Assembly: GCA_027050205.1 (NCBI GenBank)
Contig: JALUCS010000056.1
Coordinates: forward strand, 1-45,525
DNA length: 45,525 nt
Reading direction: 5' to 3'
Source of the DNA: a candidate division WOR-3 bacterium
GTDB taxonomy: Bacteria > Hydrothermota > Hydrothermia > LBFQ01
Both the position numbers and the translations under genes were made by a program. The notes under the pieces were generated by a model. The model saw only the letters and a program-made list of their open reading frames with translations. It was not told the origin of the DNA and ran no database searches. This document shows, piece after piece, positions 60 through 28,912 of the stretch. Each line of letters starts with the position of its first letter. The stretch's first letter is position 1.

Positions 60-140
60 CCCATCCTCACCTTCAAAAATTGAAAGTGGGACTTTAAGAA
101 ACCGAAAATCACTCTTTAATAAATAACAAATTGAACTTTA
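60..140 (-). repeat. Degenerate 22-bp-period array (dyad TAAAG-N5-CTTTA + 7-bp T-rich linker), 3-4 units
   Basis: Minus strand reads TAAAG-ttcaa-TTTGT tatttat TAAAG-agtga-TTTTC ggtttct TAAAG-tccca-CTTTC aattttt GAAGG; on + strand CTTTA ends at 96, 118 and 140. Confidence 0.75.
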
Positions 141-371
141 AGCTCCTTGCACCCCCCATTAACGAACTTTGAACGGCGTCAAATGATACGACCTACCTTT
201 ATCGCCAATCTTTGGCATACGATCCGGGAAATTCCGTACCAACGTTCATAGGGAGATGCGTTATCCCATCCGCCAAATACCGAAGTTGGACTTCAAATTT
301 TTGGAAAGTGGGACGTAATCGGCACATTTTTCGCCAACAAGATCCCCACATTACCGACGTAACATCGCGAA

Positions 372-1319
372 TCACTTCTCCATCTTATCCACGTTCAAGA
401 TACTCTTTTGGTCCGTCACCAGGACCTTTATCTTCTTGCCGAGTTTGTCTATGTACATATAGGTCAGGATCTTAGGGTTCCTTCTTATGACTTCCCCTAT
501 GACCGATAGGGCCTGGGCCTTACCCTTGGCCTCTACCATCATCTTCTCAACCTTTAGGCTCTCCTGCTTGATGGCGTACTTCATCTTTAAGGCCTCCTGC
601 TCGGCTATCCTCCGCTCCTCCAAGGCCTTCTCGTAGTCCGGGGAGAGCTTTATGTCCCTTATCACGGCGTCTATGAAGAGGAAGCCCATCGGCTCTATCT
701 TGTTCCTTATGTACTCCTTGAGGTCGTACTCCACCCCGTACTGGCTGAAGGACACCAACTCCTCCGCAGTGTATTTGGAGATGATGTACTTTATGGCACC
801 TATGAACGAGGGTCGGATGAACTTCTCCTCGTAGTCGGGACCGAAGTTCCGATGGACCTTCATGAGGTTCTCCGGTACCAGTTTGTACCACATCGTGGCC
901 TCTACCCCTACGGTTATGCCGTCCTTACTGGTACCCCACACCGTACCCTCCCCCTTACGCTTCTTCGTAGGGCTTACCGTTACCTCCCTAACGCGGAGGT
1001 CATAGAGATATACACTCTCAAAGATGGGCATTATGAAGACGGTACCCTCGTGGACGATGCTGTAGGTTTTGAAGAGGCTGTTGAACTTGACGCCGGCGTT
1101 CCCCTGTGGTACCACCTTGACGGAGAGGAAAGCGAGGGCCACCACTATCGCCACTATGGAGCCGGCCACCAGTTGGGGGGTTAGGATGAACTTCCGTACC
1201 GTCCGGATGTCCCCTCCCTTCTCTACCAGTACCTCTTGGGTGCCGTACCTATACACCAAGTAGAACAGGACGAGGAAGAGCGCTACCGGTACGATGACGT
1301 TTACAAGGTCGTAGCTCAT
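372..1319 (-). CDS. SPFH/band 7/prohibitin family membrane protein
   Basis: Two N-terminal TM segments; VVPQGNAGV, SKDGITVGVE, IRDIKL motifs; coiled EERRIAEQEA tail; ATGA overlap with purS. Confidence 0.9.
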   Translation of the reverse strand: MSYDLVNVIVPVALFLVLFYLVYRYGTQEVLVEKGGDIRTVRKFILTPQLVAGSIVAIVVALAFLSVKVVPQGNAGVKFNSLFKTYSIVHEGTVFIMPIFESVYLYDLRVREVTVSPTKKRKGEGTVWGTSKDGITVGVEATMWYKLVPENLMKVHRNFGPDYEEKFIRPSFIGAIKYIISKYTAEELVSFSQYGVEYDLKEYIRNKIEPMGFLFIDAVIRDIKLSPDYEKALEERRIAEQEALKMKYAIKQESLKVEKMMVEAKGKAQALSVIGEVIRRNPKILTYMYIDKLGKKIKVLVTDQKSILNVDKMEK

Positions 1320-1558
1320 AGCCTATGGATGGTATAGTCCTCTATTATAGGGTTGGAGAGGACCTCGCTGGCCATCTTTTCTACCAACGTTTCGGCCTCC
1401 TTTTCGCTGTTGGCCTCCACCTCCAGCTCTATGCTCTTGCCTATCCTCACCTCTCCCACCTCCATACCCATCTCGCGAAGGACGCTTGCAACGGCCCTAC
1501 CCTGTGGGTCTAACAGCTCCTTCCGGGGCATGACGATGACCCTAAACTTGAATCGCAT
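1316..1558 (-). CDS. purS: Phosphoribosylformylglycinamidine synthase subunit PurS
   Basis: 80 aa with LDPQGRAV, VRIGKSIEL and LSNPIIEDY signatures. Confidence 0.95.
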   Translation of the reverse strand: MRFKFRVIVMPRKELLDPQGRAVASVLREMGMEVGEVRIGKSIELEVEANSEKEAETLVEKMASEVLSNPIIEDYTIHRL

Positions 1559-1588
1559 GGCCGACGATTATACCGTTGAAGGACGGGC

Positions 1589-1918
1589 CTACTCCGGAAG
1601 CTCGTCCCTCACGTCCTCGTGGGCCTTGTACTCCTCGTCCTGAAGGACGGAGGTTATGAAGTCGTCTATCTCCCGCTTCGTTAGGAATACCCCGGCGAGA
1701 AGCTTTCCGGTATATCGGTTGTTCTTTATCTCCCAGAACATATAGAATTCCGGGAACCGCTCCTTCAGTTGCCTGTAGGCGACGCCGTACTTACTCGGCT
1801 TCTTGTAGTTCTGCTCTATGAAGAAGTGATTTTCGGACACCTCTATGAGGTTCAGGACGGCACCCGTTTTGGTCTCTACCAGCTTCCACTTGAGGGGTTT
1901 CTCTTTGAGGACCTTCAT
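1589..1918 (-). CDS. Hypothetical protein (109 aa), resembles a Thermococcales conserved protein
   Basis: Start moved to ATG 1918 (TATAAT 10 nt upstream; the longer ORF overlaps mgtE antisense); sequence KYGVAYRQLKERFPEFYMFWEIKNNRYTGKLLAG; family resemblance is from memory. Confidence 0.75.
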   Translation of the reverse strand: MKVLKEKPLKWKLVETKTGAVLNLIEVSENHFFIEQNYKKPSKYGVAYRQLKERFPEFYMFWEIKNNRYTGKLLAGVFLTKREIDDFITSVLQDEEYKAHEDVRDELPE

Positions 1919-1985
1919 AGGTACGGGTATTATACACCCGTTGTTGGGTGTATCTTGCACTTTTAAACGACCGTACAATTGCAAC

Positions 1986-3344
1986 TTGTTTCGGATAGCC
2001 CAGGCCCTCCTCCCGGAAATTCGCGACCTCTTGAGGAACCGGGAGTTGAGGCCTTTGAAGTCCCTCCTGTCCGAGCTCCATCCCGCCGAGATTGAGGATA
2101 TAATCTCCGAGCTTTCCCCTTCAGAGGCCGTTTTGCTCCTGAAACTTCTGCCACCGGAGAAGGCGGCGGAGGTGATCTCCAACCTCCACACCCACAACAT
2201 AGACAAGATAATAGCCGGTTTCTCCGATAAGCAACTCCTTGAGATAATGGAGGAGATGGACGACGACGACCGTACCGCTCTCTTTGAGGAGCTTCCCCCG
2301 GACCTCGTCAGGAAGATCCTATCCCTCCTGCCGGAGGAGGAGAGGGAAATTGCCTTGACCCTTTTGAACTACCCGGAGGACTCCTGCGGTCGCCTTATGA
2401 ATACGGAGTTCGTGGCCCTGAACCGTAAGACCACCGTAAAGGAGGCCTTAGAACACCTTAGGAGGAGCGACTACGCCGACGAGGTACTCTTGACCATATA
2501 CGCATTGGACGACGCCCAACGCCTCCGGGGACAGGTCAAACTGACCACCTTGGTGAAATCTCCGGAGGAGGTCCCCATAGGGAAGCTGGCGGAGAAGGTC
2601 CCCTTCGTATCGGCCTACGACCCCGCCTGGAAGGCGGCCAAGATAATGGCAGACTACGACCTCCTCTCCATACCCGTCGTGGATAGTGCCAACCGTATGC
2701 TCGGCGTGATCACTATAGACGACGTGGTGGACGTGATAGTTGAGGAGAGCGCCGAGGACTTCTTGAGGTTCGCTGCCGTGAGCGATCCGGAGGACAACTA
2801 CTTCCTCCTGCCCGTCTTGGAGAGGGTCAAGAAGAGGCTCCCGTGGTTGGCGGGTTTGGCCCTTCTGGCCAACGTCTCCTCCTTTATAATAGGGGCGTAC
2901 GAGGACGTCCTGAAGGAGGCCGTTATACTCGCCGCCTTCATACCTATCCTGAACGGTACGGCGGGGAACACCGGTTCCCAGTGCGCCAGCTTCGTAATAC
3001 GGGCCCTCGCTACGGGGGAGATTACCCTCAACCCCAAGGAGGTCCTGAAGCTTTGGATGACGGAGATGGTGGGGGTACTCTTCGGTCTCGCCCTCCCCCT
3101 ATCGCTCATAGCAGCAGGGAGCGCCTTCCTCCGTACCCACAACCTCGCCATAACCCTGTCCGTCGCCCTTACTATGACGGTGGCCGTCCTCGTGGCCAAC
3201 AGCATCGGCTTCTTCCTTCCCCTTATCGCCAAGAGGCTCGGTATAGACCCGGCCAGCATATCTGCCCCCCTCAACGCTACCCTGAACGATGCCCTCACCC
3301 TAACCCTCTACTTCACCATCTCCCGCCTCATTCTCCACCTGTAG
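1986..3344 (+). CDS. mgtE: Magnesium transporter MgtE
   Basis: MgtE N domain (LHPAEI, MDDDDR), CBS pair (YPEDSCGRLMN, GVITIDDVVD), TM region GNTGSQ and DPASISAP; probable TTG start at 1986, 6 nt after TACAAT. Confidence 0.95.
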   Translation: MFRIAQALLPEIRDLLRNRELRPLKSLLSELHPAEIEDIISELSPSEAVLLLKLLPPEKAAEVISNLHTHNIDKIIAGFSDKQLLEIMEEMDDDDRTALFEELPPDLVRKILSLLPEEEREIALTLLNYPEDSCGRLMNTEFVALNRKTTVKEALEHLRRSDYADEVLLTIYALDDAQRLRGQVKLTTLVKSPEEVPIGKLAEKVPFVSAYDPAWKAAKIMADYDLLSIPVVDSANRMLGVITIDDVVDVIVEESAEDFLRFAAVSDPEDNYFLLPVLERVKKRLPWLAGLALLANVSSFIIGAYEDVLKEAVILAAFIPILNGTAGNTGSQCASFVIRALATGEITLNPKEVLKLWMTEMVGVLFGLALPLSLIAAGSAFLRTHNLAITLSVALTMTVAVLVANSIGFFLPLIAKRLGIDPASISAPLNATLNDALTLTLYFTISRLILHL

Positions 3345-3909
3345 CCATCGCGTAGGTTTCGGGGTCGTAGAGTACGACCCTATCCACCTTAAGGGTATCC
3401 CTTCCGGTTAAGACCTCAACCTTGACGTAATGCTCCCCTTCCTCTACCTCTGGCTCCAGATACACGTACCCCTCTCCCCGTCCCACGGCTACCACCTTCC
3501 CATCTATGGACACCCTGACCTCCAGGTTCCCATCGCCTTGGACGAGGATGTAGCCATCCCATAGGTCCTCAAGACCGCTTACCTCAACCGTGGGCGTCTC
3601 CTCCACTTCCTTGTTCCCTCCCAGTGGCATCCTTACAAAGAATACGGCCAAAAGGAGAAGGGCGGTGATGGATGCGAAGGCTACGGCGAGACGGAGGTAC
3701 GGGAACCTCCTCTTTACGGTGGGTGGTGGAGGCGGTACCACCTCCCGCGCCATCTCCTCCATCAGGGTAGCGAGCCTCCTCTCCCTCTCGTACAGCCTGC
3801 GGCACTCCCCGCAGGTCTCAAGGTGCCTTAGCACCTCCTCCTTCTCCTCCCCCTCCAACCTCCCTATGGCCAGAAGGGGAATGAGTTCCCTTATCTGCCT
3901 GTGGGTCAT
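3328..3909 (-). CDS. Zinc-finger (zf-HC2) transmembrane anti-sigma factor
   Basis: HLETCGEC (HxxxCxxC) motif, single TM helix, periplasmic beta domain; translationally coupled to the ECF sigma gene. Confidence 0.9.
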   Translation of the reverse strand: MTHRQIRELIPLLAIGRLEGEEKEEVLRHLETCGECRRLYERERRLATLMEEMAREVVPPPPPTVKRRFPYLRLAVAFASITALLLLAVFFVRMPLGGNKEVEETPTVEVSGLEDLWDGYILVQGDGNLEVRVSIDGKVVAVGRGEGYVYLEPEVEEGEHYVKVEVLTGRDTLKVDRVVLYDPETYAMATGGE

Positions 3910-4433
3910 TTTCCTTTCTCCTTCAAAAGTGCCTTTAGCTTTCTCTTCGCCCTGTTCAGTCTGGATTTTACCGTCCCTACGCTAACCCCTGTGGCCTCGG
4001 CTATCTCCCTGTAGGTCATCTTCTCCACGTAGAAGAGGTAGAGGACCTCCCTGTAAGGGTCCGGCAGGGAGTAGTATGCCCGGCGAAAGGCGTCAAGGGG
4101 GACGGCGAAGTCCGGCTCCTCCGTCTCCTCCTCATAGTCGTCCTCCTTGGATAACAGGGGGTTGTCCAGGTCGTCCGCCTCCTCGGAGTAGGGGGCGGGT
4201 AGCAGGGGTAGGTGCCTGTTTCTATACCTCCAGTAGTCGTTCATTACGTTTATGGCTATGCGGAAGAGCCAGGTCTTTACCGAGGACAGGCCTTTGAACC
4301 CGGCGAAACCCTTCAGGGCCTTCGTGAAGACCTCCGAGGTCAGGTCAAGGGCGTCGTTGTAATCCCGGACCTTGGAGTATATGAACCGGAAGACGTCCCC
4401 GTAGTGTTTCCTGTAGACCTCCTCAAACGACAC
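3906..4433 (-). CDS. ECF RNA polymerase sigma-70 factor
   Basis: Region 2 DLTSEVF...KTWLFRIAIN; region 4 TYREIAEATGVSVGTVKSRLNRAK. Confidence 0.95.
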   Translation of the reverse strand: MSFEEVYRKHYGDVFRFIYSKVRDYNDALDLTSEVFTKALKGFAGFKGLSSVKTWLFRIAINVMNDYWRYRNRHLPLLPAPYSEEADDLDNPLLSKEDDYEEETEEPDFAVPLDAFRRAYYSLPDPYREVLYLFYVEKMTYREIAEATGVSVGTVKSRLNRAKRKLKALLKEKGK

Positions 4434-4463
4434 CGTACATTAGACCCCGGTATGTTCCCGCAT

Positions 4464-4486
4464 AAAAAAGGGGGGCAAAGCCCCCC
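4464..4486 (-). terminator. Rho-independent terminator of the S8 protease gene
   Basis: Minus strand GGGGGGC-TTT-GCCCCCC followed by TTTTTT, about 23 nt after the stop at 4510. Confidence 0.85.
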
Positions 4487-4509
4487 CCTCGTACCTTTCC
4501 CGCGTAAGG

Positions 4510-6669
4510 TCATCGGATCATCAGGCGGTAGCTCCGTCCCTCGCTTACGACGAAGAACACTCCCCTGTGGAGCCTCACCCTCTGGCCGCCCTTGAAGGAG
4601 CCGATCAGACGGCCGTCGCTCGCATAGACCTTCGCCCCCTTCAGGAAGAGGACGGTCTGACCGGATACGGTGTAGGGCAGGTAGGAGGATCTGGACCTGG
4701 GAGACTCCTCAACGGATAGGCCGTCCCCGTTTCCGCAGGGGCCGGCGTCCACGACCACGAGGCTGTAGGGCTGGGTGCCGCCGGGTTTGGGGTTGTTGAG
4801 GGCGCGACCGTATACCTTAACCCTCCATATCCCCCTCTTGGCGGGGGCGACGTACACCACCTCAACGTTGTTTAAGTAGTCCCTGCCTGTCGGGTTGGGT
4901 ACGGAGACCCCATCGCTGATGATGTTGCCGTGGTACTCGTTGCCATCCGCCCCTTCAACTATGAGGTCAAGGTCGTTCTGGAGGTAGGCGCCGGGGGCGT
5001 CCGTCCAGGCCAGCACGATCTTCACGTAGTCGGTGTACATAGACTCGTTGCAGCCAACGATGACGTCGTAGACGGCCGTATCGCCGGCGGAGATGCCAAC
5101 GCTGTCGTCGACGACGAAGAGGCGGTGCCTGTACTCCGGGGGCATATCGGCGAAGAAGAGGACCCTGCTTAGGTTGACCCCTCCGAAGCCCACCTCGTTG
5201 TTGGGAGGCGTAGGCTCGTACTCAAGGGGCTGGGCGGAGGCTATGAGGGCGGCCTTCAGAAGGGACCCTTGGGGTACGAAACCGTTGGCCGTGTCCCTGA
5301 CTCCGTTGGGATACCAGCCCTCCCTGAAGTACTGGCGGACGAGGAGGGCCGTACCGGCGGCCGCAGGGGCGGCCATAGAGGTACCCTGAAAACCGCTCGT
5401 GAGGATGCTGCAAGAGTAAGTCCTATCGGTCCGATTCCGAGCAGAGCCTATGAAGGAAGGTGAATAATGATAGTCCCCTCCGGGGGTCATAACGTCGGGT
5501 TTTATCCTGCCGTCGTAGGTGGGACCCTGGGAGGAGTAGTAGGCCCTATGCTCATGAGGTTTCGTAAAAGCGTCAAATGCACCTGTAGCACCAACAGTAA
5601 GGGCATTTTTGGCCGTAGCAGGGGAACCTAAACTACCGTCCTCGGAGGCATCTTCATCGCTAGAGTTCCCGGCGGCAACTGTCACCAGAGCATCCGGATT
5701 GTCCCACATGAAAGCGTCCACATCTTGAGCTGCAGAGCTGTAGGTGTTAAATGCAGATCCCCAGGAGAAGTTGACCACCCTTGCTCCCCGGCTGTAGAAG
5801 TCGGTCAGGATATCGTATATGGATGAACTATAACATATACTTCCGCAACTGCCGCAGGAGGGACCTCCCGCGTCCCCGAATACCAACTTGGCTTTGTAGG
5901 CCATCCCCTTGTAGTTATAGAAGACGGAACTCGCAGAGTCGGGATAGCCAACGAAGGTTCCGCTTACGTGCGTACCGTGGGAGTAGCTACACGAGGCAAA
6001 GTCGTCGGCGTAGCTGGAGAGTACCATATAGTCCAGGACCTTCCTGTGGGTGGGGCCGGGTAGGACGACGCTGGTATCCCTGAAGAAGCAAGAGTAGTAG
6101 TCCAGACCGGTGTCCATCACCCCACCTACCTCACCCTCACCGTTTATGCCGTGCGCCCAGACGAGGGAATCCCCCTCAACGTGGGTCTGAATGTACCAGC
6201 GGGTATGGTTGTTCCAGAGGTACTTCCTTAGGTCCGGTTCCACCTTGGAAACCACCTCAAAGGCGGCGAGCTGACGGGAGATCCTTAGGACATCGCCGGG
6301 TGGCACGGAGACCTTGAACCTTGGCATTATGGAGGTGGGGAACCTTTCGGGCAGGAGGCCGAGGGAGGAGATGGCATCAAACAGCGTAGCCTCGTCCTCA
6401 CCGGGGTAGCCGGAGACTATGAGCCTCACCTTTCCGCCGTACAGGGCGTCTTCCAACTTGCCCTCGTAGATCAAAGGGCTAACCTTCAGGGCTTCGGGGA
6501 CGGGGCGGACGTTTGCGTCCTTCAGCTTGAGGTTTTCGGGAACGTACGCGATGTAGCCGTAGGACGGGACGTACTGGTATATGCGCACGCCTCGCTCCCG
6601 GAGGCTCTGGGCGTTTATCCCTTCCTCTCCACTTATCAAGGCCCATCCACCTATCAGGACCGTTATCAT
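4510..6669 (-). CDS. S8 subtilase (KP-43-like) with T9SS type A-like C-terminal sorting domain
   Basis: Catalytic DTG / HGTHV / GTSMA; KP-43-type C domain (WTD, NDLDL, NNVE); tail VYASDGRL..LHRGVFFV..RLMIR. Confidence 0.9.
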   Translation of the reverse strand: MITVLIGGWALISGEEGINAQSLRERGVRIYQYVPSYGYIAYVPENLKLKDANVRPVPEALKVSPLIYEGKLEDALYGGKVRLIVSGYPGEDEATLFDAISSLGLLPERFPTSIMPRFKVSVPPGDVLRISRQLAAFEVVSKVEPDLRKYLWNNHTRWYIQTHVEGDSLVWAHGINGEGEVGGVMDTGLDYYSCFFRDTSVVLPGPTHRKVLDYMVLSSYADDFASCSYSHGTHVSGTFVGYPDSASSVFYNYKGMAYKAKLVFGDAGGPSCGSCGSICYSSSIYDILTDFYSRGARVVNFSWGSAFNTYSSAAQDVDAFMWDNPDALVTVAAGNSSDEDASEDGSLGSPATAKNALTVGATGAFDAFTKPHEHRAYYSSQGPTYDGRIKPDVMTPGGDYHYSPSFIGSARNRTDRTYSCSILTSGFQGTSMAAPAAAGTALLVRQYFREGWYPNGVRDTANGFVPQGSLLKAALIASAQPLEYEPTPPNNEVGFGGVNLSRVLFFADMPPEYRHRLFVVDDSVGISAGDTAVYDVIVGCNESMYTDYVKIVLAWTDAPGAYLQNDLDLIVEGADGNEYHGNIISDGVSVPNPTGRDYLNNVEVVYVAPAKRGIWRVKVYGRALNNPKPGGTQPYSLVVVDAGPCGNGDGLSVEESPRSRSSYLPYTVSGQTVLFLKGAKVYASDGRLIGSFKGGQRVRLHRGVFFVVSEGRSYRLMIR

Positions 6670-6711
6670 AACACCGGTATTATACAGGAGGGATGTCGGG
6701 CTTGGCGGTCC

Positions 6712-8094: not shown

Positions 8095-8095
8095 A

Positions 8096-10723: not shown

Positions 10724-10933
10724 AATGGGTATTTTAACGGGGATAGAGGAAAGGTTGGCGGAATTTTCCCCTGCTGCGCATCAAAGACCTAACGGCGTCG
10801 GGGATGTCAAAGCGCACATGGTTATACGTTGCTTCGGAGGTAGTGTGATGCACACTTTCAGGAGACCCGTATTGCACCGAAGGCAATCCGTTCCCGAGGT
10901 TTTCAAAATCCGTCATAGGGGGTACGAGAATCT

Positions 10934-11014
10934 TGAAGTGCGACTTACTATTTCTTAAAGTGTAAGTTTAAATTTTATAAAATATATCTTTCAGTTTTTA
11001 AAAGTGCGTTGTTC
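10934..11014 (+). repeat. Degenerate 22-bp-period array, 4 units
   Basis: TGAAG-tgcga-CTTAC tatttct TAAAG-tgtaa-GTTTA aatttta TAAAA-tatat-CTTTC agttttt AAAAG-tgcgt-TGTTC; unit starts 10934/10956/10978/11000. Confidence 0.7.
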
Positions 11015-11399
11015 GGCTTTAAGCGGTGGACGAAGTATCATTTCCGTCGGCGTAATACCGCCGTTTGAAGCACCCATTCAAAAATGGGAATCGGCAATCC
11101 GAGTCTAGATTTTGGCACCGGTGATGCGGTGAATTTTTATGCCGACGGTTCATCGGAGGTTGAATCATTCTATACGATACTAAATATTTGAAGCAGAATC
11201 TGGCTCGGTACCGTTGAAGATCTTGAAATTGTAGGGTTTAAAAGTTGTAAAAGCCTAATTTAAAATTATGCCCATATTTTTATTGATGTATGAAAAATTG
11301 GAAAAATTCAGTAAATCTTTAAGTTGAGCTATTCATTTGGATATTAAGCCGATGGGGAGGGATTGCTCCGCAGCCCTATCAAACGGGACAGAAGAATTT

Positions 11400-11502
11400 T
11401 AAAGGTGAGCTTTCGGTTTACGAAAGTTGAGCTTTACATTTCTTAAATAGGGATTAGCGATTTCCTAAAGGATAAGTTTCAGATTTTGAAAGTGCATCCG
11501 TC
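11400..11502 (+). repeat. Degenerate 22-bp-period array, 5 units
   Basis: TAAAG-gtgag-CTTTC ggtttac GAAAG-ttgag-CTTTA catttct TAAAT-aggga-TTAGC gatttcc TAAAG-gataa-GTTTC agatttt GAAAG; unit starts 11400/11422/11444/11466/11488. Confidence 0.8.
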
Positions 11503-11529
11503 TCCCGTCAAACGGCGAACGGAACCCCA

Positions 11530-11565
11530 GACAACGGACAGGTATCCCCCTACCGGCTCAATACC
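11530..11565 (-). repeat. Dispersed 36-bp intergenic repeat, copy 1
   Basis: Reverse complement GGTATTGAGCCGGTAGGGGGATACCTGTCCGTTGTC matches 20420-20455 at 31/36. Confidence 0.85.
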
Positions 11566-11605
11566 GGGGGAGCTTCACGTTCCCATCAACCCCATAGCTA
11601 CTCGT

Positions 11606-11634
11606 GCCTGTCAATCCCGCTATCCTTTGAATAC
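11606..11634 (+). repeat. Dispersed 29-bp intergenic repeat, copy 1
   Basis: GCCTGTCAATCCCGCTATCCTTTGAATAC matches 28951-28979 at 27/29. Confidence 0.9.
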
Positions 11635-11800
11635 TCCTTTATGTCCCCGCTCCCCGATACCGTTCCGCTACGGGGCCGTTCCTTGTCCCTTCGCTCACCA
11701 AGTGTCAGATTTTTGTAGTAATTCTGATGTGTAAAATTTGTTCTGGTTGTGTGCAAAATGTATCATGTTTATAACTCATCGCCGTTATAATTTTCTTTCT

Positions 11801-19396: not shown

Positions 19397-19405
19397 GGAA
19401 TGGTA

Positions 19406-20239: not shown

Positions 20240-20419
20240 CTGCGTATTCTAAGGAGGCCCGCTGGGGCGTACGGGGGGACGATCAGAGCGAAGGGATTAC
20301 GAAGGCGGGTTTTCGGTATTCGGTGGATGGCCCACCTCTGAGGGAGTGGTCGGCGTTCTATAATTTGGGATTATGCTGATAGGGGGATAGCCTACCTTCC
20401 ACGTCCTCCCCATTAACGG

Positions 20420-20455
20420 GGTATTGAGCCGATAGAGGGGTACCTATCCGTCGTC
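20420..20455 (+). repeat. Dispersed 36-bp intergenic repeat, copy 2
   Basis: GGTATTGAGCCGATAGAGGGGTACCTATCCGTCGTC; 31/36 to the reverse complement of 11530-11565, all mismatches transitions. Confidence 0.85.
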
Positions 20456-20856
20456 CGAGTACGCATAGGGTATAGCTTCCCGACGGCATTTTTCCATTTT
20501 TTGGGCGCAGGTGAAAGTGGGATAATATGAGAAAATGTTTGTAAATATGGTAGTTAGCATCAAATTGTTAAAAATCTGCATGTACTTCCATAAAATCTTA
20601 AAATTATCCCAGTTTTATGGGGCTGTGGGGTGATAGTCATTCCATCAGCAGAATCCCGGTTTCAGAAGGTGCGAGATACAGTTCAACGGATCCTTGAAGG
20701 CCATATCGTACCATCCATAAACCTATCCACCAAATACCGCAATCTTTTTGGGGAAGTTCCCAACCCCTCATCCGCCGAATATCGCATCATCTACCGAATA
20801 TCGTTGTTTAAGAAGAAAAAGAACTGTTTGTGCCATTGTGATTTTCCCACGCTTAA

Positions 20857-21255: not shown

Positions 21256-21284
21256 TTGACAAATCAAGTTGATTCATCCATTAT
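21256..21284 (+). promoter_or_regulatory. Sigma-70 promoter with palindromic operator in its spacer
   Basis: TTGACA (21256-21261), 17-nt spacer, CATTAT (21279-21284); AATCAA-G-TTGATT inverted repeat at 21262-21274. Confidence 0.6.
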
Positions 21285-21293
21285 TCCTCTCCT

Positions 21294-21723
21294 ATGGCTA
21301 CGCTAAGGGCGACTCTTTTTCCTTCCCTTCGTCTTGGGTATAGCACTTGCCGGATGCAAAGGGGAACCTACGGTTCTCCTTGAGGAAACCACAGTGGTAC
21401 CGCAGGAAGGTTACGTCTCCTACACCCTCTCGCTGGAGGAGGGGACGGAGGTTGAGACCGAGGTAAGGGTCCAGAACGATCAGCCCATAGATGCCCTTCT
21501 CATAGACGCTTCGGACCTCTCCGTTTGGGAGGATACTACCAGCATGAGCATAGACGTCTATACGTGTTGCTCAACTACCGGGGTCAAGAGTAAAACCTAT
21601 ACCTTCATCGCTCCCAAAACCGGTGAGTTCGCTGTAATACTGAACAACGGATGGCGGGCTTTTGATGGTTCCCTCCCCTCCGAGAAGGACGCCGACGTTT
21701 ACGTAAAGATGACGGCAAAGTAA
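21294..21723 (+). pseudogene. Lipoprotein with beta-sandwich (GOLD/emp24-like) domain; 1-nt frameshift in the signal peptide (real lesion or assembly error)
   Basis: Main frame (ORF track 21334..21723) has lipobox LAGC but an in-frame TAA at 21304; ATG 21294 is one base out of frame; FIAPKTGEFAVILNN resembles a GOLD strand motif. Confidence 0.6.
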
Positions 21724-21737
21724 AAGGAGGTAGAGCC

Positions 21738-22043
21738 ATGAGAAGGGCCTTAACTTTAGAAACGATAGGAGGGGCGCTTCTCCTTTCGTCCTGCGCTACC
21801 ATAAGCATAAGCGGGGAAGCCCAGCTTGCCCCGAAGTCCGCCGTGTGCAGAAAGGTCAACCAGAAGCAGATCTGGTTCCTCTTCGGCCTCTTCCCCATCG
21901 GAGACAACTCCACCGACGACATCATACCCAAGGGCAAGAAGGTCAAGATAGAGACCAAGTTCACCCTGACGGACTTCGCTATAGAGTTCCTACCCAGCGG
22001 CTTCTTAGTAAGTCGCACAGCCGAGGCCTACGTGTGTGAGTAG
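21738..22043 (+). CDS. Bor/Iss-like small lipoprotein
   Basis: SD AAGGAGGT; signal MRRALTLETIGGALLLSS-C; WFLFGLFPIG and RTAEAYVC pattern. Confidence 0.7.
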   Translation: MRRALTLETIGGALLLSSCATISISGEAQLAPKSAVCRKVNQKQIWFLFGLFPIGDNSTDDIIPKGKKVKIETKFTLTDFAIEFLPSGFLVSRTAEAYVCE

Positions 22044-22048
22044 GGAAT

Positions 22049-22075
22049 GGGGGCCTTCGGCCCCCTCCGTTCTTC
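22049..22075 (+). terminator. Probable intrinsic terminator hairpin
   Basis: GGGGGCC-TTC-GGCCCCC 5 nt after the stop, followed by a weak T tract (tccgttcttc). Confidence 0.6.
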
Positions 22076-22290
22076 AAGTGGCTATTTTTTCTGAAGTTAT
22101 GCCCCAGTTCTTGAGGGGCGTCCGGACATCTGTACCTCCCGATTATCGGCGGATGGGAATCGCCCCTACCCAAACGGCGTTGGGAGGAGCCCTCAACGGT
22201 CCCCACACCTCCCCCATCAACGTACTGCCCGTCTGACCCCTTTTCCACCTCCCGTTCCCCGGTATAATACCGGTCAAACAAGGGGGTACT

Positions 22291-23490
22291 ATGCATGAGG
22301 ATACCAAAGTCGTACGAGGACTTGATGAGGAGCGGTTTCATAAGACCGACTCTTACATGAACAAGGCCCTGAACTCCCACCGCCTACCCATCTACCAGAC
22401 CTCCACCTTCATATTTGACTCCTTAGAGGAGGCCTACAAAGCCTTCACCGGTGAGGAGCATCACCACATCTACTCCCGTGTCTCCAACCCCAACGCCCTC
22501 TACCTCGGAGCCAAGGTCGCCCTGTTGGAGGGGGCGGAGGCCGGAATCGCCTTCAACTCCGGTATGGCCGCCATCACCACCACCCTCCTGACCCTGACGA
22601 AGCCGGGGGACCGTATAGTTTCCTCCAAGCCCGTGTACGGCGGTACGGGGGAGTTCTTCGCTTACCTGCAGGAGCATCTCGGCATACGGGTGGACGTTCT
22701 CGGCCCGGAGGAGTTCTACGAGGCCCTTGAGAAGGGGGGCTACAGGGTGGCCTACGTTGAGACGCCGGGCAACCCTACCCTGACCGTCTACGACATAGAG
22801 CTGGCAGCCCGTCTCGCTCATAAGAACGGGGCCGTTCTGGTCGTGGATAACACCTTCGCCACGCCCTTCCACCAGAAGCCCATAGAGTGGGGTGCGGACG
22901 TAGTACTGCACAGCAGCACGAAGTACATCAACGGCCACGGGGACACTATAGGTGGGGTGGTGGTCGGAAAGGAGGATTTCATAAAGGAGCTGCTCCATAC
23001 CACCAAGATGTTCGGCACCCTGATGCAGCCCTTCAACGCCTGGCTTACGGCGAGAGGTCTCCGCACCTTGGCCGTACGTATGCGCAAGCACTCCGAGAAC
23101 GCCATGAAGGTGGCCCAGTTCCTTGAGAGCCGCCCGGAGGTGGTTGAGGTGAACTACCCCGGACTCCCCTCCTTCCCCTACCACGATATAGCCCGGAAGC
23201 AGATGAGGAACGGGTACTCCGGAATGGTCTCCTTCGTCCTTGACGGCACGAGGGAGCATCTGAAACGCTTCATAACCTCCCTTGAGCTGTTCCACTTCGC
23301 CGTCTCCCTCGGAGATACGGACAGCCTCGCCACTTCTCCCGCCCTCACCACCCACGCCCTCTCCCCCACGACGGACTTCCCCGCCAACCTCGTAAGGCTC
23401 TCCGTAGGTCTGGAGGATGCGGACGACCTCATAGCCGACCTTGAGAATGCACTAAAGAAGGCCTTCCACACCAGCGAAGTGGGGCGATAG
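22291..23490 (+). CDS. PLP-dependent trans-sulfuration enzyme (cystathionine/methionine gamma-lyase family)
   Basis: PIYQTSTF, YSRVSNP, SGMAAI, YGGT, DNTF, SSTKYINGHGD (PLP lysine), RLSVGLED; leadered (TATAAT 22263, SD AGGGGGT). Confidence 0.92.
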   Translation: MHEDTKVVRGLDEERFHKTDSYMNKALNSHRLPIYQTSTFIFDSLEEAYKAFTGEEHHHIYSRVSNPNALYLGAKVALLEGAEAGIAFNSGMAAITTTLLTLTKPGDRIVSSKPVYGGTGEFFAYLQEHLGIRVDVLGPEEFYEALEKGGYRVAYVETPGNPTLTVYDIELAARLAHKNGAVLVVDNTFATPFHQKPIEWGADVVLHSSTKYINGHGDTIGGVVVGKEDFIKELLHTTKMFGTLMQPFNAWLTARGLRTLAVRMRKHSENAMKVAQFLESRPEVVEVNYPGLPSFPYHDIARKQMRNGYSGMVSFVLDGTREHLKRFITSLELFHFAVSLGDTDSLATSPALTTHALSPTTDFPANLVRLSVGLEDADDLIADLENALKKAFHTSEVGR

Positions 23491-23493
23491 AGG

Positions 23494-25203
23494 TTGATCA
23501 ACCTGCTGCGGCTCCTCCTTCCCCACTGGAGGAGGGTTCTCGCGGGTTTTGCGGTGTTGTTGGTGGTTGACCTGGGGCAGTTGGTCGTCCCCCAGTTCGT
23601 CCGCCGGGCGGTAAACGAACTTTACGCAGGCAACTACTCCGCCGTACCTAAGTGGGCGGCCTTCATAGTGGGGGTCGCCCTCTTCTTCTCCTTCCTCCGC
23701 TTCTTCTGGCGGTACTTCTTCATAGGGACCTCCCGCCTCCTTGAGAAGGAGCTGCGGAGCAAACTCTACGAGCATACCCTAAGGCTGGACCCCGGACTCT
23801 TCCGTACGATGAAGACTGGGGACGTTATGGCCCTCTTCACGAACGACCTCCAGGCCATAAACATGGCCCTCGGTATGGGGATGGTAGCCATCGCCGACTT
23901 CACCATATACACCACCTTCTCCATAGTGGCTATGCTCCTCATATCCCCCAAACTCACGGGGATGGTGATAATCCCTCTGCCCCTAATCGGCGTGGTGATG
24001 TTTATCCTCGGTCGCCTGATATACCGCAAGTTCCGGGAGGTGCAGGACTTCTTCGGCCTCCTGACGGAGTGGCTCCGGGACATCCTTAGCGGCATAAGGG
24101 TGGTGAAGGCCTACGATACGGAGTTCAGGCTCACCCGTCGCTACTCCGAGATCTCGGAGAGGTTCCTGAAGTTGAACCTCCAGTTCGCCGTAATAGACGG
24201 CCTCTTCCACCCTGCCATAAGCACCCTCGCCTATGTCTCCCTCGCCATCCTCCTCTTGGTGGGCGGTAAGATGACGACCACCGGCCTCGTCTCCCTTGGC
24301 GACTACGTGGCCTTCAGCTCCTACATCGGGATGATGATCTGGCCGATGGTGGCCCTCGGCTGGTTCGCCAACCTCGTACAGAGGGGGAGCGCCTCGTACT
24401 CCCGCATAGAGGCCTACCTGTCCATAGAGCCTCCCCTTAAAGAGGACGGGAAGGTGGAGATTGACGGTTTCCGGGAGCTCCAAACGAGGGGTTTAGGGGT
24501 CGCCATAAACGGGCGGACGGTCCTCCGAGGGGTGGATATGCACGTAAGGGAGGGGGAGTTCGTGGGTATAACGGGGCCGACGGGGGCCGGAAAGAGCGTC
24601 CTCCTCAACACGCTGGTCAAGTTTCACCTCCCCTTTACCGGTAGGGTTCTGGTCAACGGTACCGATTACCTGGAGGTCTCCACCGACTCCCTCCGCTCTC
24701 ACATCCTGTTGGTGCCTCAAGAGGTCTTCGTCTTCTCAATGACCATCGCCGAGAACCTAAAGGTGGCCAGGCCGGACGCCACAGAGGAGGAGATGTGGTG
24801 GGCCTTGAGGATGGCCGGTCTGGACGAGGACGTAAGGCGGATGCCCGACGGCCTTAACACCCTGATAGGGGAGAGAGGGGTGGGCCTCTCCGGTGGGCAG
24901 AGGCAGAGGCTGGCCCTCGCGAGGGCCTTCTTGAGTCCCGCCTCCCTGATCCTGTTGGACGAGTCCCTCTCCGCCCTTGACTCCAAGACGGAGGAGAAGG
25001 TGGTACGGAGCCTAAGGGAACTGGGTAAGACCGTGGTCCTCGCCTCCCACAGGCTGACGTCCATAGCAGCGACGGACAGGATATACGTCCTCGTGAGGGG
25101 GAAGACGGTGGAGGAGGGTACCCACGAGGAGCTGCTTCGCAACGGTGAGATATACCCCATGCTCTGGAAGGCCCACCACGAGGGGATAAGGGGAGGTCCG
25201 TAA
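23494..25203 (+). CDS. ABC exporter, fused TMD-NBD half transporter (MdlA/YheI-like)
   Basis: 6 TM helices; Walker A GPTGAGKS; signature LSGGQRQR; Walker B LILLDE; SHR switch. Confidence 0.92.
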   Translation: MINLLRLLLPHWRRVLAGFAVLLVVDLGQLVVPQFVRRAVNELYAGNYSAVPKWAAFIVGVALFFSFLRFFWRYFFIGTSRLLEKELRSKLYEHTLRLDPGLFRTMKTGDVMALFTNDLQAINMALGMGMVAIADFTIYTTFSIVAMLLISPKLTGMVIIPLPLIGVVMFILGRLIYRKFREVQDFFGLLTEWLRDILSGIRVVKAYDTEFRLTRRYSEISERFLKLNLQFAVIDGLFHPAISTLAYVSLAILLLVGGKMTTTGLVSLGDYVAFSSYIGMMIWPMVALGWFANLVQRGSASYSRIEAYLSIEPPLKEDGKVEIDGFRELQTRGLGVAINGRTVLRGVDMHVREGEFVGITGPTGAGKSVLLNTLVKFHLPFTGRVLVNGTDYLEVSTDSLRSHILLVPQEVFVFSMTIAENLKVARPDATEEEMWWALRMAGLDEDVRRMPDGLNTLIGERGVGLSGGQRQRLALARAFLSPASLILLDESLSALDSKTEEKVVRSLRELGKTVVLASHRLTSIAATDRIYVLVRGKTVEEGTHEELLRNGEIYPMLWKAHHEGIRGGP

Positions 25204-25260
25204 GGTTCCCGCTTGTGACCCTGATAAGGCCTATTTACGCCCTTAGAATAAATGTCATCT

Positions 25261-25632
25261 ATGGTAGAGGAACTGCAAAACATCGTTGAGGATGTCCGAC
25301 GGTTCGTCCCTACCCTCTTAGGGGCGATCGTCATAAGTGAGGACGGACTCCCCATCGGATACTCCTTCTCCAAGGCCTGGGATATGGAGGACCCCATAGT
25401 GATAAGCGGTCTGATATCCTCTGCTATGGCTATGATGGAGAACGTCCTGCGGGAGTTCGGAGATACGGGCGCCCAGCTCACCTTCGCCCAGGGTAAGGAG
25501 TACTCCCTCTTGGTGGGAAGAGCCGGGAACGTCTTCGTGGGCTTCATAGCAACGGCCGACACCACCCTCGGGACCCTCTTTATGGAGATGCGGAAGCAGA
25601 GCAAGAGGATAGCCGAGATATTCTCATCCTGA
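25261..25632 (+). CDS. Roadblock/LC7 (MglB-like) domain protein
   Basis: GAIVISEDGLPI motif, helix SGLISSAMAM, C-terminal LGTLFMEMRK; start 25261 or 25252 (TAGAAT at 25244-25249 favours 25261). Confidence 0.85.
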   Translation: MVEELQNIVEDVRRFVPTLLGAIVISEDGLPIGYSFSKAWDMEDPIVISGLISSAMAMMENVLREFGDTGAQLTFAQGKEYSLLVGRAGNVFVGFIATADTTLGTLFMEMRKQSKRIAEIFSS

Positions 25633-25643
25633 AAGGGGGAAGT

Positions 25644-26081
25644 ATGACGGAGAAGTTAGACGAGTTCCTGAAGAACGAAGGCGTTATCCTCCCCAAGGAC
25701 TTCGTCGTGGATGTGTATGCCCAGATCCTCAAGTTTGCCGGGGGGTTCGCCGGTCTCCTCCAAGCCGGCTCCAAGCGGGCAGGAGTCAGCGCCGCCAAAT
25801 CCCTCGCCCCTTACATATCCGGGGACGAAGCCGTAGCCAACCTGAAGGAGCTTATTGAGGAGTTCTTCCGCAGGGCCGGGTTCGGCGACATAGAGGTGGA
25901 GGTGGGAGACTCCAAGATCGTACTCAACGTCAAGGACAGCTTCCTCCTCAAGGCCCACAAGAAACCCGAAGTCTCCCTCCGACCCCTCGTAGGTGCGGCC
26001 GAGGGCTTCATAGGGGAGGTAATGGGGAGGAAGACGAAGACGAAGGTAGAGGGTACCCGGATAGTGATAGAGCTGAAGTAG
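25644..26081 (+). CDS. V4R/H-NOX-fold-like small protein
   Basis: FFRRAGFGDIEV, IVLNVKDSF, LVGAAEGFIGEV pattern typical of V4R domains; the usual Cys ligands are absent. Confidence 0.6.
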   Translation: MTEKLDEFLKNEGVILPKDFVVDVYAQILKFAGGFAGLLQAGSKRAGVSAAKSLAPYISGDEAVANLKELIEEFFRRAGFGDIEVEVGDSKIVLNVKDSFLLKAHKKPEVSLRPLVGAAEGFIGEVMGRKTKTKVEGTRIVIELK

Positions 26082-26681
26082 ATGCTCCTGCTCATCGCCC
26101 TCCTCAAGATAGCCCGCCTGCAGTATGACGGTGGAGGGGACTGGTACAACGACCCGGAGATACTGCCGAACATAACGAAGGCCTTCAACAGTAGGGTTTC
26201 ACCCGTCTTTGATACCCTGGCGTACAGCGTCCGTCCCTCGTCGCCGGAGATATACGAGTATCCTATGCTGTTTATGACTGGACACGGGAACGTGGTCTTC
26301 TCCGAGGCCGATGCCCGGAACCTCCGCAGGTACCTGATGAACGGTGGCTTCCTCTACGTAGACGACGACTACGGCTTGGACAAGTACTTCCGACGGGAGA
26401 TAAAGAAGGTTTTCCCGGACTACGAGCTGGTGGAGATTCCACCGGAGCATCCCATATTCCACATCTTCTACGACCAACCCCTACCCAAGGTCCACGAGCA
26501 TTACCCCGGCCCTCCGAAGGCGTACGGCATATTCGTCAAAGGTCGCCTCGTCCTCCTCTACACTTGGAACTCCAACGTCTCCGACGGCTGGACCGATCGC
26601 TACGGCGACCCCCCCGATATAAGGGAGAAGGCCGTCCGTATGGGGGTCAATATCCTCCTCTACTCCCTCGTGGGCATTTGA
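26082..26681 (+). CDS. DUF4159 domain protein
   Basis: IARLQYDGGGDWY, YPMLFMTGHG, GGFLYVDDDYG, HPIFH, SDGW, MGVNILLY motifs. Confidence 0.9.
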   Translation: MLLLIALLKIARLQYDGGGDWYNDPEILPNITKAFNSRVSPVFDTLAYSVRPSSPEIYEYPMLFMTGHGNVVFSEADARNLRRYLMNGGFLYVDDDYGLDKYFRREIKKVFPDYELVEIPPEHPIFHIFYDQPLPKVHEHYPGPPKAYGIFVKGRLVLLYTWNSNVSDGWTDRYGDPPDIREKAVRMGVNILLYSLVGI

Positions 26682-27082
26682 GTGGGGCGTTTAGGGACGG
26701 TCGGTAGGATACGGCGAAGGGAGGCAGGGGGACGGATAGGGCGGAGGTTGGTGTCGGTGCATACGTGGGTGGTGCGTCCCTCGGCTACCTTCTCCTCCCC
26801 ACGGTAGGCTGTGTAGGATACGAATATCTTCGCCCCCTTTATGAAGGCGTCCACTTCAATGTCTAAGGTGTCGTCAAACCTCGCCGGTTTTATGTAGCGG
26901 ATGTGTATGTCCAGAAGCGGCATTAGGATGCCCCTATCCTCCAAATCTTTGTAGGGTTGCCCGAGGTACCTTAGGTACTCAATCCTCGCCTCCTCAAAGT
27001 AGACGGCGTAAATACTGTGATGCACGACCCCCATCTGATCCGTCTCGGCATATCTAACCTTTATCCTGTGCCTGAACGCCAT
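26660..27082 (-). CDS. YbgC/4HBT family acyl-CoA thioesterase
   Basis: VRYAETDQMGVVHHSIYAVYFEEAR hotdog signature. Confidence 0.92.
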   Translation of the reverse strand: MAFRHRIKVRYAETDQMGVVHHSIYAVYFEEARIEYLRYLGQPYKDLEDRGILMPLLDIHIRYIKPARFDDTLDIEVDAFIKGAKIFVSYTAYRGEEKVAEGRTTHVCTDTNLRPIRPPASLRRILPTVPKRPTQMPTRE

Positions 27083-27431
27083 GGTCTTCCTCCGGTGATA
27101 CGTTCCCGGAAACGGTGGCCCCCTCTTCTACCACGAGGACCTTGTACTTTAGGTTTCCGGTGAATTTCCCCGTACCCTTGAACTCCACCCTCTTGGCTAC
27201 CAGCTCCTCCGTACGGATCTCCCCGGCACAGACGACGGAACCGGCCCTTACGATTTTGGACTCTATCTTACCGTCCGTCTCCACTATCAGTTCCCCCTTC
27301 ACCTCAACGTCCCCCTTGAGCTTCCCCTCCACTATGGCGCTCCCCTCAACCGTGATGTTGCCCACCAGCTCCGTCCCCTTACCTACGAAAAGTTCAACGG
27401 AGGCGAAATCCTCCTTCTTCCTCCCGAACAT
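27054..27431 (-). CDS. Bactofilin (polymer-forming cytoskeletal protein)
   Basis: MFGRKK membrane-targeting N-terminus; beta-helix repeats (LVGNI, VEGKLKGDV, VEEGATVSGNV). Confidence 0.9.
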   Translation of the reverse strand: MFGRKKEDFASVELFVGKGTELVGNITVEGSAIVEGKLKGDVEVKGELIVETDGKIESKIVRAGSVVCAGEIRTEELVAKRVEFKGTGKFTGNLKYKVLVVEEGATVSGNVSPEEDHGVQAQDKG

Positions 27432-27433
27432 CT

Positions 27434-27886
27434 TTAACCTCCGAACGCCGAGATGAGGACACCGGCCAGGGAGGAGAGCTTAGAAAGGAGTACGGTCTGC
27501 TCTACCGTAAGGCGGAAGGCCGGTACACTGATGGCCGCGTACCCAAGGACACCGGCAAAGAGGGAGGACTCCACGAAGGCGAATATACCCCCGACGAGGG
27601 GATCCAAACCACCTAACGAGAAGTTCAGCCTAAGTTGAGAGGTTAGGAGCTGGATACCCTGATGGAGGACCAGGAAGACTATCAGGAAGGCCACCATCCT
27701 CCTGACGGCTTCGTCCTGAAGGAAGTTCAGGGTATTTGCCACCGGTGAGGTGAAGAGGACCCCACCCCAGAGGGCGACTATCAGGGCTACCAACGCCCAA
27801 AAGGACGTCCCCGCCTTTGATCGCGCCCCCTGGTAGGTGGAGAAAAGCACGAAAGCAACCGCTGCCAAATCTATCAACCAGACCAT
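27434..27886 (-). CDS. CvpA family membrane protein
   Basis: Start at ATG 27886 (MVWLIDLAAV, TAGAAT 8 nt upstream); 4 TM helices; LDPLVGGIF motif. Confidence 0.75.
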   Translation of the reverse strand: MVWLIDLAAVAFVLFSTYQGARSKAGTSFWALVALIVALWGGVLFTSPVANTLNFLQDEAVRRMVAFLIVFLVLHQGIQLLTSQLRLNFSLGGLDPLVGGIFAFVESSLFAGVLGYAAISVPAFRLTVEQTVLLSKLSSLAGVLISAFGG

Positions 27887-27912
27887 AGGGCGATATTCTA
27901 CGGGGGGTAGGG

Positions 27913-28632
27913 TTAGGGACGTTTGCGACCCAACTTCTCCCAAGCTTCGGCCGTCCAGGGCATCTTCTCCCTGAAGATCCGTAGGATAACCTTGGCGTAC
28001 TGCCTTATCTCCCACTGGGCGTCGGAGGCCTCCCTCAAACGCAGGAAGTTCATAAGGCTGCGGGCATTCACCGTCCAGTAGAACTGGGTGTATATGCCCA
28101 AGGGGAGGACTATACGGGCCAACTCTCTCGCTACGCCCCTCTCCAACATCTCCCTGTAGAGGGTATAGACGTACCTGTAGGCCTCCTCTATCTTGGATAG
28201 GATCTCCCCCTCGTCCGGAAAGTCGGCGAACTCGCTCGCCTGCTTGTTGCCCTTTGAAGGTTTGCGTAGCCTGTCGGGTACGTAGAACTCGTCCCCCACC
28301 TCCACGTACCGTTGGCTTATCTCGTTGTAGGAGGCTATCCGGTGCCTAAACCACTCCCTGGCGACGAATATCGGGGCCTTTACGTGAAACTTGAAGACGG
28401 CGTGTTCAAAGGGGGTTCCATGCTCGTGCTTCATAAGGTAGTTTATCAGGCGGCGGTCCTTCTCCGGTGTCTTGAGGCCCTGCCCTACGGAAACGCGGGC
28501 GGCCTGTACCACCGCCCTGTCCCCCCCCAAGAACTCTACGAGCCGAACGAACCCCTTGTCAAGGACGTTGTAAGCCCCGCAGTGCGGACAGGGTTGCGAT
28601 TCCACTTCTCTGCCGCAGGAGTTGCATCGCAC
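27913..28632 (-). CDS. thyX: FAD-dependent thymidylate synthase ThyX with N-terminal Zn ribbon
   Basis: [26 protein letters not shown] (ThyX motif), AQWEIR; GTG start at 28632, 6 nt after TATAAT. Confidence 0.95.
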
Positions 28633-28831
28633 GGAGGGATTATAGGGGAGGAGTTTTGGAGAAGTCGGATGTGGCGTAAATCCACGTTCGGTCTTAGAAA
28701 CGGACAGGAAGGTCAGGGAGATGGTGTTACGCTTATGGGATGATGCCCCATATCCAACGCTTTCAAATGAAAACGATGGACGGTATCCAATCCTCAACAC
28801 CGCTCGGGGGATCCGTGGGGTGTCAAAATCT

Positions 28832-28912
28832 TAAAGTCAGACTTTTAATTCTTTAAACATACATTTTAGGTTTCTTAAAATACCGTTTTAAAATCTTGAA
28901 AATGATCTACGT
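28832..28912 (+). repeat. Degenerate 22-bp-period array, 3-4 units
   Basis: TAAAG-tcaga-CTTTT aattctt TAAAC-ataca-TTTTA ggtttct TAAAA-taccg-TTTTA aaatctt GAAAA; unit starts 28832/28854/28876/28898. Confidence 0.75.

Follow-up and report, generated by a model that had tools for sequence, protein, structure and literature searches.

The 45,525-nucleotide stretch of DNA described here (the window) is an entire contig, C56, of a genome from a candidate division WOR-3 bacterium (G000; 2.05 Mb, 57% GC, 135 contigs), and its intergenic gaps hold arrays of a degenerate 22-bp unit that recurs across the genome. [quoted passage not shown] Genes of the genome were called with our own script (1,913 in all), and those of the window were named with Pfam. 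Its DUF2089 protein has homologues that carry the label candidate division WOR-3. Among sequencing runs, the best match is a hydrothermal-vent metagenome, perhaps the sample of origin, and no RNA run was among those listed.

A sequence-only reading of the window had described four arrays in 22-bp register, and all four lie where it placed them, with the register exact. Array 1 occupies 70..153 on the reverse strand, with three 22-bp units starting at 142, 120, and 98, a terminal half unit, and an upstream half-site. The others are on the forward strand: array 2 at 10921..11004 (units at 10932, 10954, and 10976, half unit at 10998), array 3 at 11387..11492 (units at 11398, 11420, 11442, and 11464, half unit at 11486), and array 4 at 28819..28902 (units at 28830, 28852, and 28874, half unit at 28896). 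All four close with a TTGAAAG-like half unit, and the sequence GGTTTCT recurs, as had been noticed, at 97-103 (as its reverse complement) and at 28869-28875. A pair at 11226-11262 that had been noted as weaker did not hold up as an array; the forward-strand units there (11223..11266) are decayed and under the array threshold, the best reaching 7.4 bits at 11246. A two-unit pattern matched the window four times and 100 shuffles not once. Across the genome, intergenic gaps of at least 150 bp contain 167 unit pairs at lag 22, against 8 at lag 21, 11 at lag 23, none at lags 18-20 and 24-26, and none at lag 22 in 10 local shuffles. A matrix seeded on the window arrays found 149 three-unit chains at lag 22 and between 0 and 3 at each other lag from 15 to 34. 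After iteration it called 106 arrays, of which 56 have three units, 35 have two, and 15 have four, all of them outside called genes; because two contigs overlap, the 77-142 array is counted twice among them, leaving 105 distinct arrays, one being the native promoter discussed below, and about 400 sites of 15 bp in the genome.

The unit consensus is CTTAAAGTGCGACTTTCAGTTT, with information peaking at TT (positions 2-3), AA (5-6), TT (14-15), and TTT (20-22). An array starts with a half-site ending in AAT and ends with TTGAAAG. What had been taken for a T-rich linker is not filler, since few bases are as conserved as the TTT of unit positions 20-22 (1.1-1.8 bits), and the array is better read as a polar chain of alternating half-sites, that is, as 15-bp sites TT..R-N5-T..AA centered on TTT, a form fitted strictly by 143 of 335 sites. 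Units are as alike between arrays as within them (0.602 and 0.608), which excludes recent slippage. Together with the constrained core bases described below, this likeness sustains the earlier argument that the arrays are probably selected binding sites of a dimeric protein rather than products of slippage.

Several other identities were considered for the arrays and mostly set aside. A minisatellite of the BrickBuilt type is disfavored by the low unit number (only two to four) and by the equality of within-array and between-array identity. Rep_3 plasmid iteron origins consist of 3.5 repeats of 22 bp, and the arrays share that period and apparent copy number with them; here, however, the units are degenerate (60% alike) and present in about 100 chromosomal copies, and PF01051 was not found in G000, which is 93.5% complete. 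The arrays have no spacers, and the CRISPR repeats of this genome are other sequences; those CRISPR loci, of at least three repeat types and in more than 10 arrays, are spread over many G000 contigs. One large palindrome centered around the first unit gave a modest peak, with other centers as good. The signal for a structured RNA is inconsistent, with z scores from -2.8 to +0.9 across eight folds, and Rfam matched tRNA only and no array. Polarity along the replication strand was also rejected: arrays at neighboring loci on one contig point the same way in 22 of 36 cases (p=0.24), and a usable GC skew was not seen.

The flanks of the arrays point to how they spread. They form families and hold a second motif, GGTATT..GCYGATRGR, which has 239 matches in the genome, nine of them inside called genes, and which often occurs in inverted pairs around an array. 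The same motif also forms the ends of an element of 906 bp (C31:1269-2174), which has an 8-bp duplication and in which a zinc-ribbon/HTH frame (InsA) and a DDE frame (InsB), both open, overlap at an A-run. This element scores 27.6 bits against PF03400 (cutoff, 24.1) and is by its domains and frames a predicted IS1-family transposase locus. A second copy, at C40, is broken; no array unit lies inside either full copy, and transposase relatives with the same ends occur in 5 of 11 genomes of the family. InsA-like zinc-ribbon/HTH frames without a DDE part are also found at C123:5594-5836 (with its own stop and no nearby end listed) and C61:464-685.

Array-bearing elements are short (204-370 bp), noncoding, and multicopy. 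Exact 8-bp duplications accompany eight facing end pairs, against zero to two matches in offset controls, and, among long gaps, an IS1-type end occurs in 62 of 79 that contain an array and in 39 of 183 that do not (p=3e-18). Simple end-to-end elements number 46, of which 20 carry an array and 21 lack any unit, and arrays occur in both of the largest families among them (8 and 5 members). It had been foreseen that the motif might turn out to be a known IS or MITE end; the arrays are indeed cargo of IS1-family MITEs, which explains their genomic scatter, but they are not the ends themselves. An assignment to IS1595 was rejected, because PF12762 was not found and the element sharing these ends belongs to IS1. 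A degenerate inner IS1 end directly upstream of the arrays was not supported, and swapped target duplications, as a mark of recombination between copies, gave one distant match, within the control range. We regard dispersal of the arrays by IS1-family MITEs as very likely.

The cargo, in turn, resembles a host promoter. A profile built from 26 arrays was run against 18 further genomes of the order, and its two best non-self matches, in G005 (E 2e-7) and G004 (E 1.3e-4), fall immediately upstream of one and the same gene; the orthologue of that gene in G000 (C104:12130) also has an array upstream, in a native promoter at about C104:12045-12130, though the surrounding genes differ. R1 matches in G014 and G018 fell within a coding gene and were dropped. 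The gene in question combines a SHOCT-like domain with a weak Toastrack/DUF4097 match, and its LiaX match is likewise weak (E 5.5e-4, far under the cutoff). Such SHOCT-like/Toastrack genes are linked to envelope-stress systems and coupled to HTH regulators (PMC11237479). Periodic sites over -35 and -10 of this promoter are kept in most members of the family and order, and in congeners the motif is essentially limited to it.

Matrices from relatives recover the arrays in the reverse direction, the strongest of these tests. When a matrix of eight promoters from relatives, with no G000 input, was run on G000 intergenic DNA, where 5% arrays would be expected by length, arrays supplied 25 of the top 25 matches, 45 of the top 50, and 74 of the top 100, nearly all antisense to the array; G004 and G005, which belong to this matrix, had been found with the array model, and the test is therefore partly circular, making the distant set the cleaner evidence. 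With that set, a matrix of about 38 distant promoters, arrays made up 17 of the top 25, compared with 0 of 25 for control promoters and 4, 0, and 3 of 25 for column shuffles. Promoters of DUF2089 operons exceed same-loci controls in 21- to 22-bp periodicity (p=0.008, for the full-window subset of 49 regions and 23 controls), and among 80 metagenome loci the 16 distinct promoters with a recognizable -35 do so too, with p=0.002 against 108 controls and p=0.008 against 66 that are AT-rich. Read antisense, 37 of 62 arrays have a -10-like hexamer in the first unit and in no other, as in the native promoter; in the window such hexamers lie on the reverse strand of array 3 (TAAAAT, 11396-11401) and array 4 (TAAGAT, 28828-28833, facing thyX). 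From these comparisons, we are highly confident that the arrays share the motif, period, and polarity of the native SHOCT-like/Toastrack promoter.

The sequence-only reading could not match the motif to a regulator, and the evidence now points to the DUF2089 protein, which is predicted to consist of a zinc ribbon, an HTH, and a SHOCT-like tail. Its gene is divergent from the SHOCT-like/Toastrack gene in G001, G008, and G009 and forms one operon with it in many members of the class, while in G000 the single DUF2089 gene (on C88, encoding 119 amino acids) is located elsewhere with no array upstream. At one locus (L186), TTTCA-N5-TGAAA lies over the -35 of a DUF2089 gene. G007 is without DUF2089 and without the operator. 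What is left at its locus L127 (G007:C3) is a remnant of the divergent gene's start, the gene being that of DUF2089, in front of another gene; the gene body and operator have disappeared. The family occurs in 127 of 201 WOR-3 genomes and above the cutoff in Thermus, Deinococcus, Bacteroides, and Thermotoga controls. In the predicted structure (predicted local distance difference test score, 83), residues 39-86 align to HTHs of the LuxR/NarL type; the best fold match is DosR, with a root mean square deviation of 1.2 over 47 residues and a Z of 7.0, a middling value for a common fold. No solved close relative was found by sequence and none by Foldseek at E<=0.001. No GerE/LuxR regulator that could take the role of LiaR scored above the cutoff in G000. 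Among the literature matches listed, none has DUF2089 in its title or abstract, and the available portion of PMC11237479 describes no operator for it. Taking neighborhood and motif together, we consider DUF2089 the probable binder of the arrays.

A different binder, such as HU/IHF or some other nucleoid protein, or a constraint on DNA shape, with the likeness to the promoter reflecting a shared cofactor, is in our judgment improbable. The genome does encode two HU/IHF-family proteins, and the TCAR-N4-TTR spacing of the unit recalls the IHF consensus, WATCAANNNNTTR. That consensus is fitted exactly by 1 of 335 sites, on which ground an IHF site was rejected, and AA/TT phasing in the arrays peaks at 22 and 7.3 bp rather than at 10.5-11. 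The near-restriction of the motif to one promoter in congeners is also unlike a general nucleoid signal. A scan of 596 Gb of GTDB contigs returned three matches to the arrays, two of them poor scoring and the third a perfect 22-bp tandem repeat of a similar unit in a Culturomica contig (L013:266-375), right after an HU-like gene. The placement of this repeat would suit an HU-type binder, but as one match of three in 596 Gb it may be chance. Closer to the genome under study, strict array patterns matched none of 60 relatives and, in another scan, one site in 1 of 11, and in 149 other WOR-3 genomes, with only 28 candidates scored per genome, the array model gave no match at E<=1e-6.

Evidence for selection comes from comparing the core bases of the arrays with the rest of the MITEs, where matched bases change four to six times as often. 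Within family A (13 copies), core A/T bases mismatch the consensus at 2.5%, against 15.4% for other A/T bases; invariant columns number 33 of 37 in the core but 15 of 44 at other A/T bases (p=3e-7), and leaving family A out when defining the core gives the same positions and two more. Private changes per column, the sole branch-type evidence on substitutions, average 0.05 in the core, 0.25 at other A/T bases, and 0.39 at key end bases (core versus ends, p=0.007). Among genome-wide best-hit pairs, 46 of 1,631 positions differ in core A/T runs (2.8%), whereas A/T runs elsewhere differ at 585 of 4,863 (12.0%) and key end bases at about 12%, although the sites in these counts are not independent. 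Scores of three-unit arrays with no, one, or two ends average 65.1, 66.5, and 63.4 (n=22, 16, and 11), a comparison biased by detection by score. Constraint on the cargo exceeds that on the ends that movement requires; this favors selection after insertion, and we think it rather likely that such selection keeps the sites bindable.

These arguments must be set against a number of findings that weigh on the other side. Ends are present on both sides of only 37 of the 106 arrays (51 have an upstream end and 59 a downstream end), and among those 37 two-ended elements only 7 retain a target duplication in which no more than one position mismatches; the three in the window are not among these. No extended homology was found between the MITEs and the flanks of the native promoter. 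DUF2089 is assigned by neighborhood and motif, and two genomes that keep it, G003 and G016, have promoters with low scores (-3.8 and -8.8), which leaves the joint loss in G007 as one instance, in a genome that is 90% complete. The 106 arrays were detected by score, and decayed arrays are missed. Family B, reduced to five full rows after four partial ones were dropped, gave no significant constraint (27 of 30 versus 67 of 81, p=0.55).

If the arrays were neutral relics, they would be old minisatellite-like MITE cargo, comparable to BrickBuilt, that is simply decaying, with low mutation of A/T runs and detection bias mimicking conservation. The broken state of most elements, which lack duplications, and the result for family B agree with this; however, A/T runs outside the core change four times more often, core positions set without family A are still invariant in family A, units are not homogenized within arrays, and the motif matches a conserved promoter of relatives. 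We consider such relics very improbable.

Selection could also act at the level of the element, with the host gaining nothing, if protein bound to the short MITE bent or bridged it and helped IS1 transposase in end pairing or targeting, so that copies would multiply only while their arrays are intact. The presence of arrays in both of the largest MITE families would be expected from this, and neighboring arrays within one gap are co-oriented in 24 of 25 pairs. Six of 228 ends lie at the last array site, against 0.14 expected, a hotspot picked after seeing examples; a filled and empty pair is consistent with it, in which a 148-bp array-less IS1 MITE in G002 (L043:315-462) is inserted in the single site of an older element whose empty form is present in G004 (L051/L107). 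Correia elements, too, have a site for IHF (PMC10969869). Yet a general test found no enrichment of insertions into array units (16 versus 16), nearly half of the simple elements do without any unit while some array-less ones still keep target duplications, and the key end bases decay at the background rate when the cores do not. An explanation confined to the element is accordingly doubtful.

Under the model of MITE-dispersed DUF2089 operators, each 15-bp site would take up a DUF2089 dimer, with the dimers spaced two helical turns apart along one face of the DNA, and at the native promoter the bound protein would cover -35 and -10 and repress the SHOCT-like/Toastrack gene. A nonautonomous IS1 derivative would have picked up this promoter and operator, and IS1 transposase, a putative partner, would have copied it in trans into about 100 gaps, after which most ends would have been broken by nested insertion, adjacent deletion, and recombination, while selection after insertion would maintain bindable sites.

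What that selection serves is a separate matter. Regulation of neighboring genes is not supported as its purpose. Internal gaps with an array are convergent in 13 of 72 cases, much as are long array-free gaps (21 of 137), and arrays in tandem gaps show no orientation bias (20 versus 14), findings on which a promoter box was rejected and which do not support placement for promoter control. A rewired regulon, in which a MITE gives adjacent genes a DUF2089-controlled promoter and the host keeps useful additions to an envelope-stress response, meets the same difficulty. In its favor are the reverse-strand -10-like hexamers shared with the native promoter, and plant MITEs are described as dispersing transcription factor sites (PMC5950925). 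But arrays with a -10 face genes no more often than others, and facing genes lie anywhere from 88 to 1868 bp away, making a rewired regulon highly improbable.

The purposes left would be independent of position: silencing, titration, organization of the chromosome through SHOCT-like domains, or help in transposition. Local silencing of AT-rich, promoter-derived inserts ranks first, narrowly and tentatively, with about a third of the weight in our estimation. It is weakened by the reverse-strand -10, which predicts neither the conservation of an array (p=0.77) nor a gene reading away from it (25 of 46 versus 41 of 57). Next would come a titration sink of some 400 sites for a repressor that does not regulate itself, or a role in organizing DNA, in line with the nucleoid organization that the sequence-only reading had suggested. 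One distinctly speculative version of the latter, which we think unlikely, is that a selfish nonautonomous element carried the operator of a stress regulator from one locus to roughly 100 (about 400 sites) and that the host has domesticated the copies: DUF2089, not being autoregulated, would coat the arrays genome-wide and organize or tether the chromosome in a manner dependent on envelope stress. It would do so through the SHOCT-like tail of DUF2089 and the SHOCT-like Toastrack protein. If true, a bacterium would possess a DNA-binding network built by a transposon.

Within the window, each array can be placed relative to IS1-type ends. Array 1 lies in a MITE-like element on the reverse strand, 259 bp long and bounded by IS1-type terminal inverted repeats at 23 and 281 (23..281); it lacks a target duplication (6 of 8 flank positions mismatch), and positions 1-127 overlap the end of contig C66. 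The element of array 2 is closed by an IS1-type terminal inverted repeat on the reverse strand at 11036..11059, its left end not being detected. Array 3 sits in a 226-bp family-A MITE on the forward strand (11340..11565, ends at 11340-11363 and 11542-11565), one of 14 near-full-length copies in the genome; other copies have 8- to 9-bp target duplications, and the window copy does not. Abutting it is a forward-strand right-end fragment of a family-B MITE (11565..11635), nested or truncated, that matches family-B right ends at 82-90%. Array 4 belongs to a 258-bp forward-strand family-B MITE with IS1-type ends (28723..28980); a target duplication is absent here, and the C87 copy has one with a single mismatch. 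A further cluster of IS1-type ends without an array (20315..20802, no strand assigned) has ends at 20315, 20367, and 20420 on the forward strand and at 20657, 20738, and 20783 on the reverse, and the gap holding these six (20240-20856) is, by its ends, a predicted set of array-less MITE relics. In congeners, gaps beside the same three window genes contain an array or end in 0 of 15 cases, with a different gene order there, and contigs from related populations (about 95% identical) cover genes but add nothing on the MITE loci.

Other features of the window and genome stand apart from the arrays. The last 126 bp of the window (45400-45525) are identical to the ends of contigs C7, C10, C60, C73, and C106 and share the same unassembled continuation, a collapsed multicopy element and perhaps another IS. 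A tRNA-Met(CAT) gene lies at 37653-37727 on the forward strand, between the CTP synthase gene and the following open reading frame. Gene order is heavily shuffled between species of the genus (L273-L287), also in MITE-poor genomes. Tandem clusters of Uma2-like putative endonucleases, in families of 22 and 11 paralogues at no less than 60% identity (one member of each was scanned), occur on C49, C73, C97, C104, C122, and C132 and on C47, C93, and C129 (for example, L289 and L290). A DUF5618/PaREP1-like gene is present in ten copies on C11, C67, C73, C93, and C94 (L291), and several minimal nucleotidyltransferase genes are found on C106, C126, and C69 (L292).

For the widespread, uncharacterized HTH family DUF2089, the analysis supplies a binding motif and a target operon that are specific enough to test. 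It also describes a bacterial transposon that appears to have multiplied the operator of a specific host regulator some 100 times, and there are indications that this cargo persists longer than the transposon ends. Domestication of bacterial MITEs as trans-acting sinks or organizers of DNA becomes testable as a result. As a method, a dispersed repeat family can serve as a natural deep alignment that exposes the motif of an orphan regulator.

Our searches turned up MITE-amplified regulator sites mainly in plants, and promoters and IHF sites alone in bacterial MITEs; nothing closer was found, and the available portions of PMC11602168 and PMC10434189 held nothing further on array-bearing MITEs. 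At its origin, the array connects to the SHOCT-like/Toastrack modules of envelope stress (YvlB/LiaX-like; PMC11237479), as the native array is the promoter of such a gene. BrickBuilt of Porphyromonas gingivalis is a species-restricted intergenic MITE with a 23-nucleotide internal tandem repeat and promoter elements (PMC4596501), so that both systems join an intergenic MITE to an internal repeat of about two helical turns; BrickBuilt, however, has 1-23 repeats with 0-11% mismatch (PMC4596501), whereas the arrays here have two to four units that are about 60% alike, a fixed core, and a source apparently traceable to a host promoter. The Neisseria Correia elements are also bacterial MITEs with promoters and a site for a host protein, IHF (PMC10969869), but theirs is a single site for a general architectural protein, in contrast to an array of three to five sites that is apparently meant for the regulator of a single operon. 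Plant MITEs that amplify E2F, bZIP60, PIF3, and TCP motifs (PMC5950925) show the same lineage-specific amplification of a motif; they are eukaryotic and are proposed to rewire genes (PMC5950925), whereas no link to neighboring genes was found here. By ends, duplications, and partner transposase, the elements described here belong with the IS1-family MITEs, and they have in common with them the ends of an InsA/InsB element, 8- to 9-bp target duplications, short noncoding multicopy elements, and nesting; what sets the main families of this genome apart is the constrained, apparently host-derived 22-bp operator array that they hold and that is absent from the autonomous IS.

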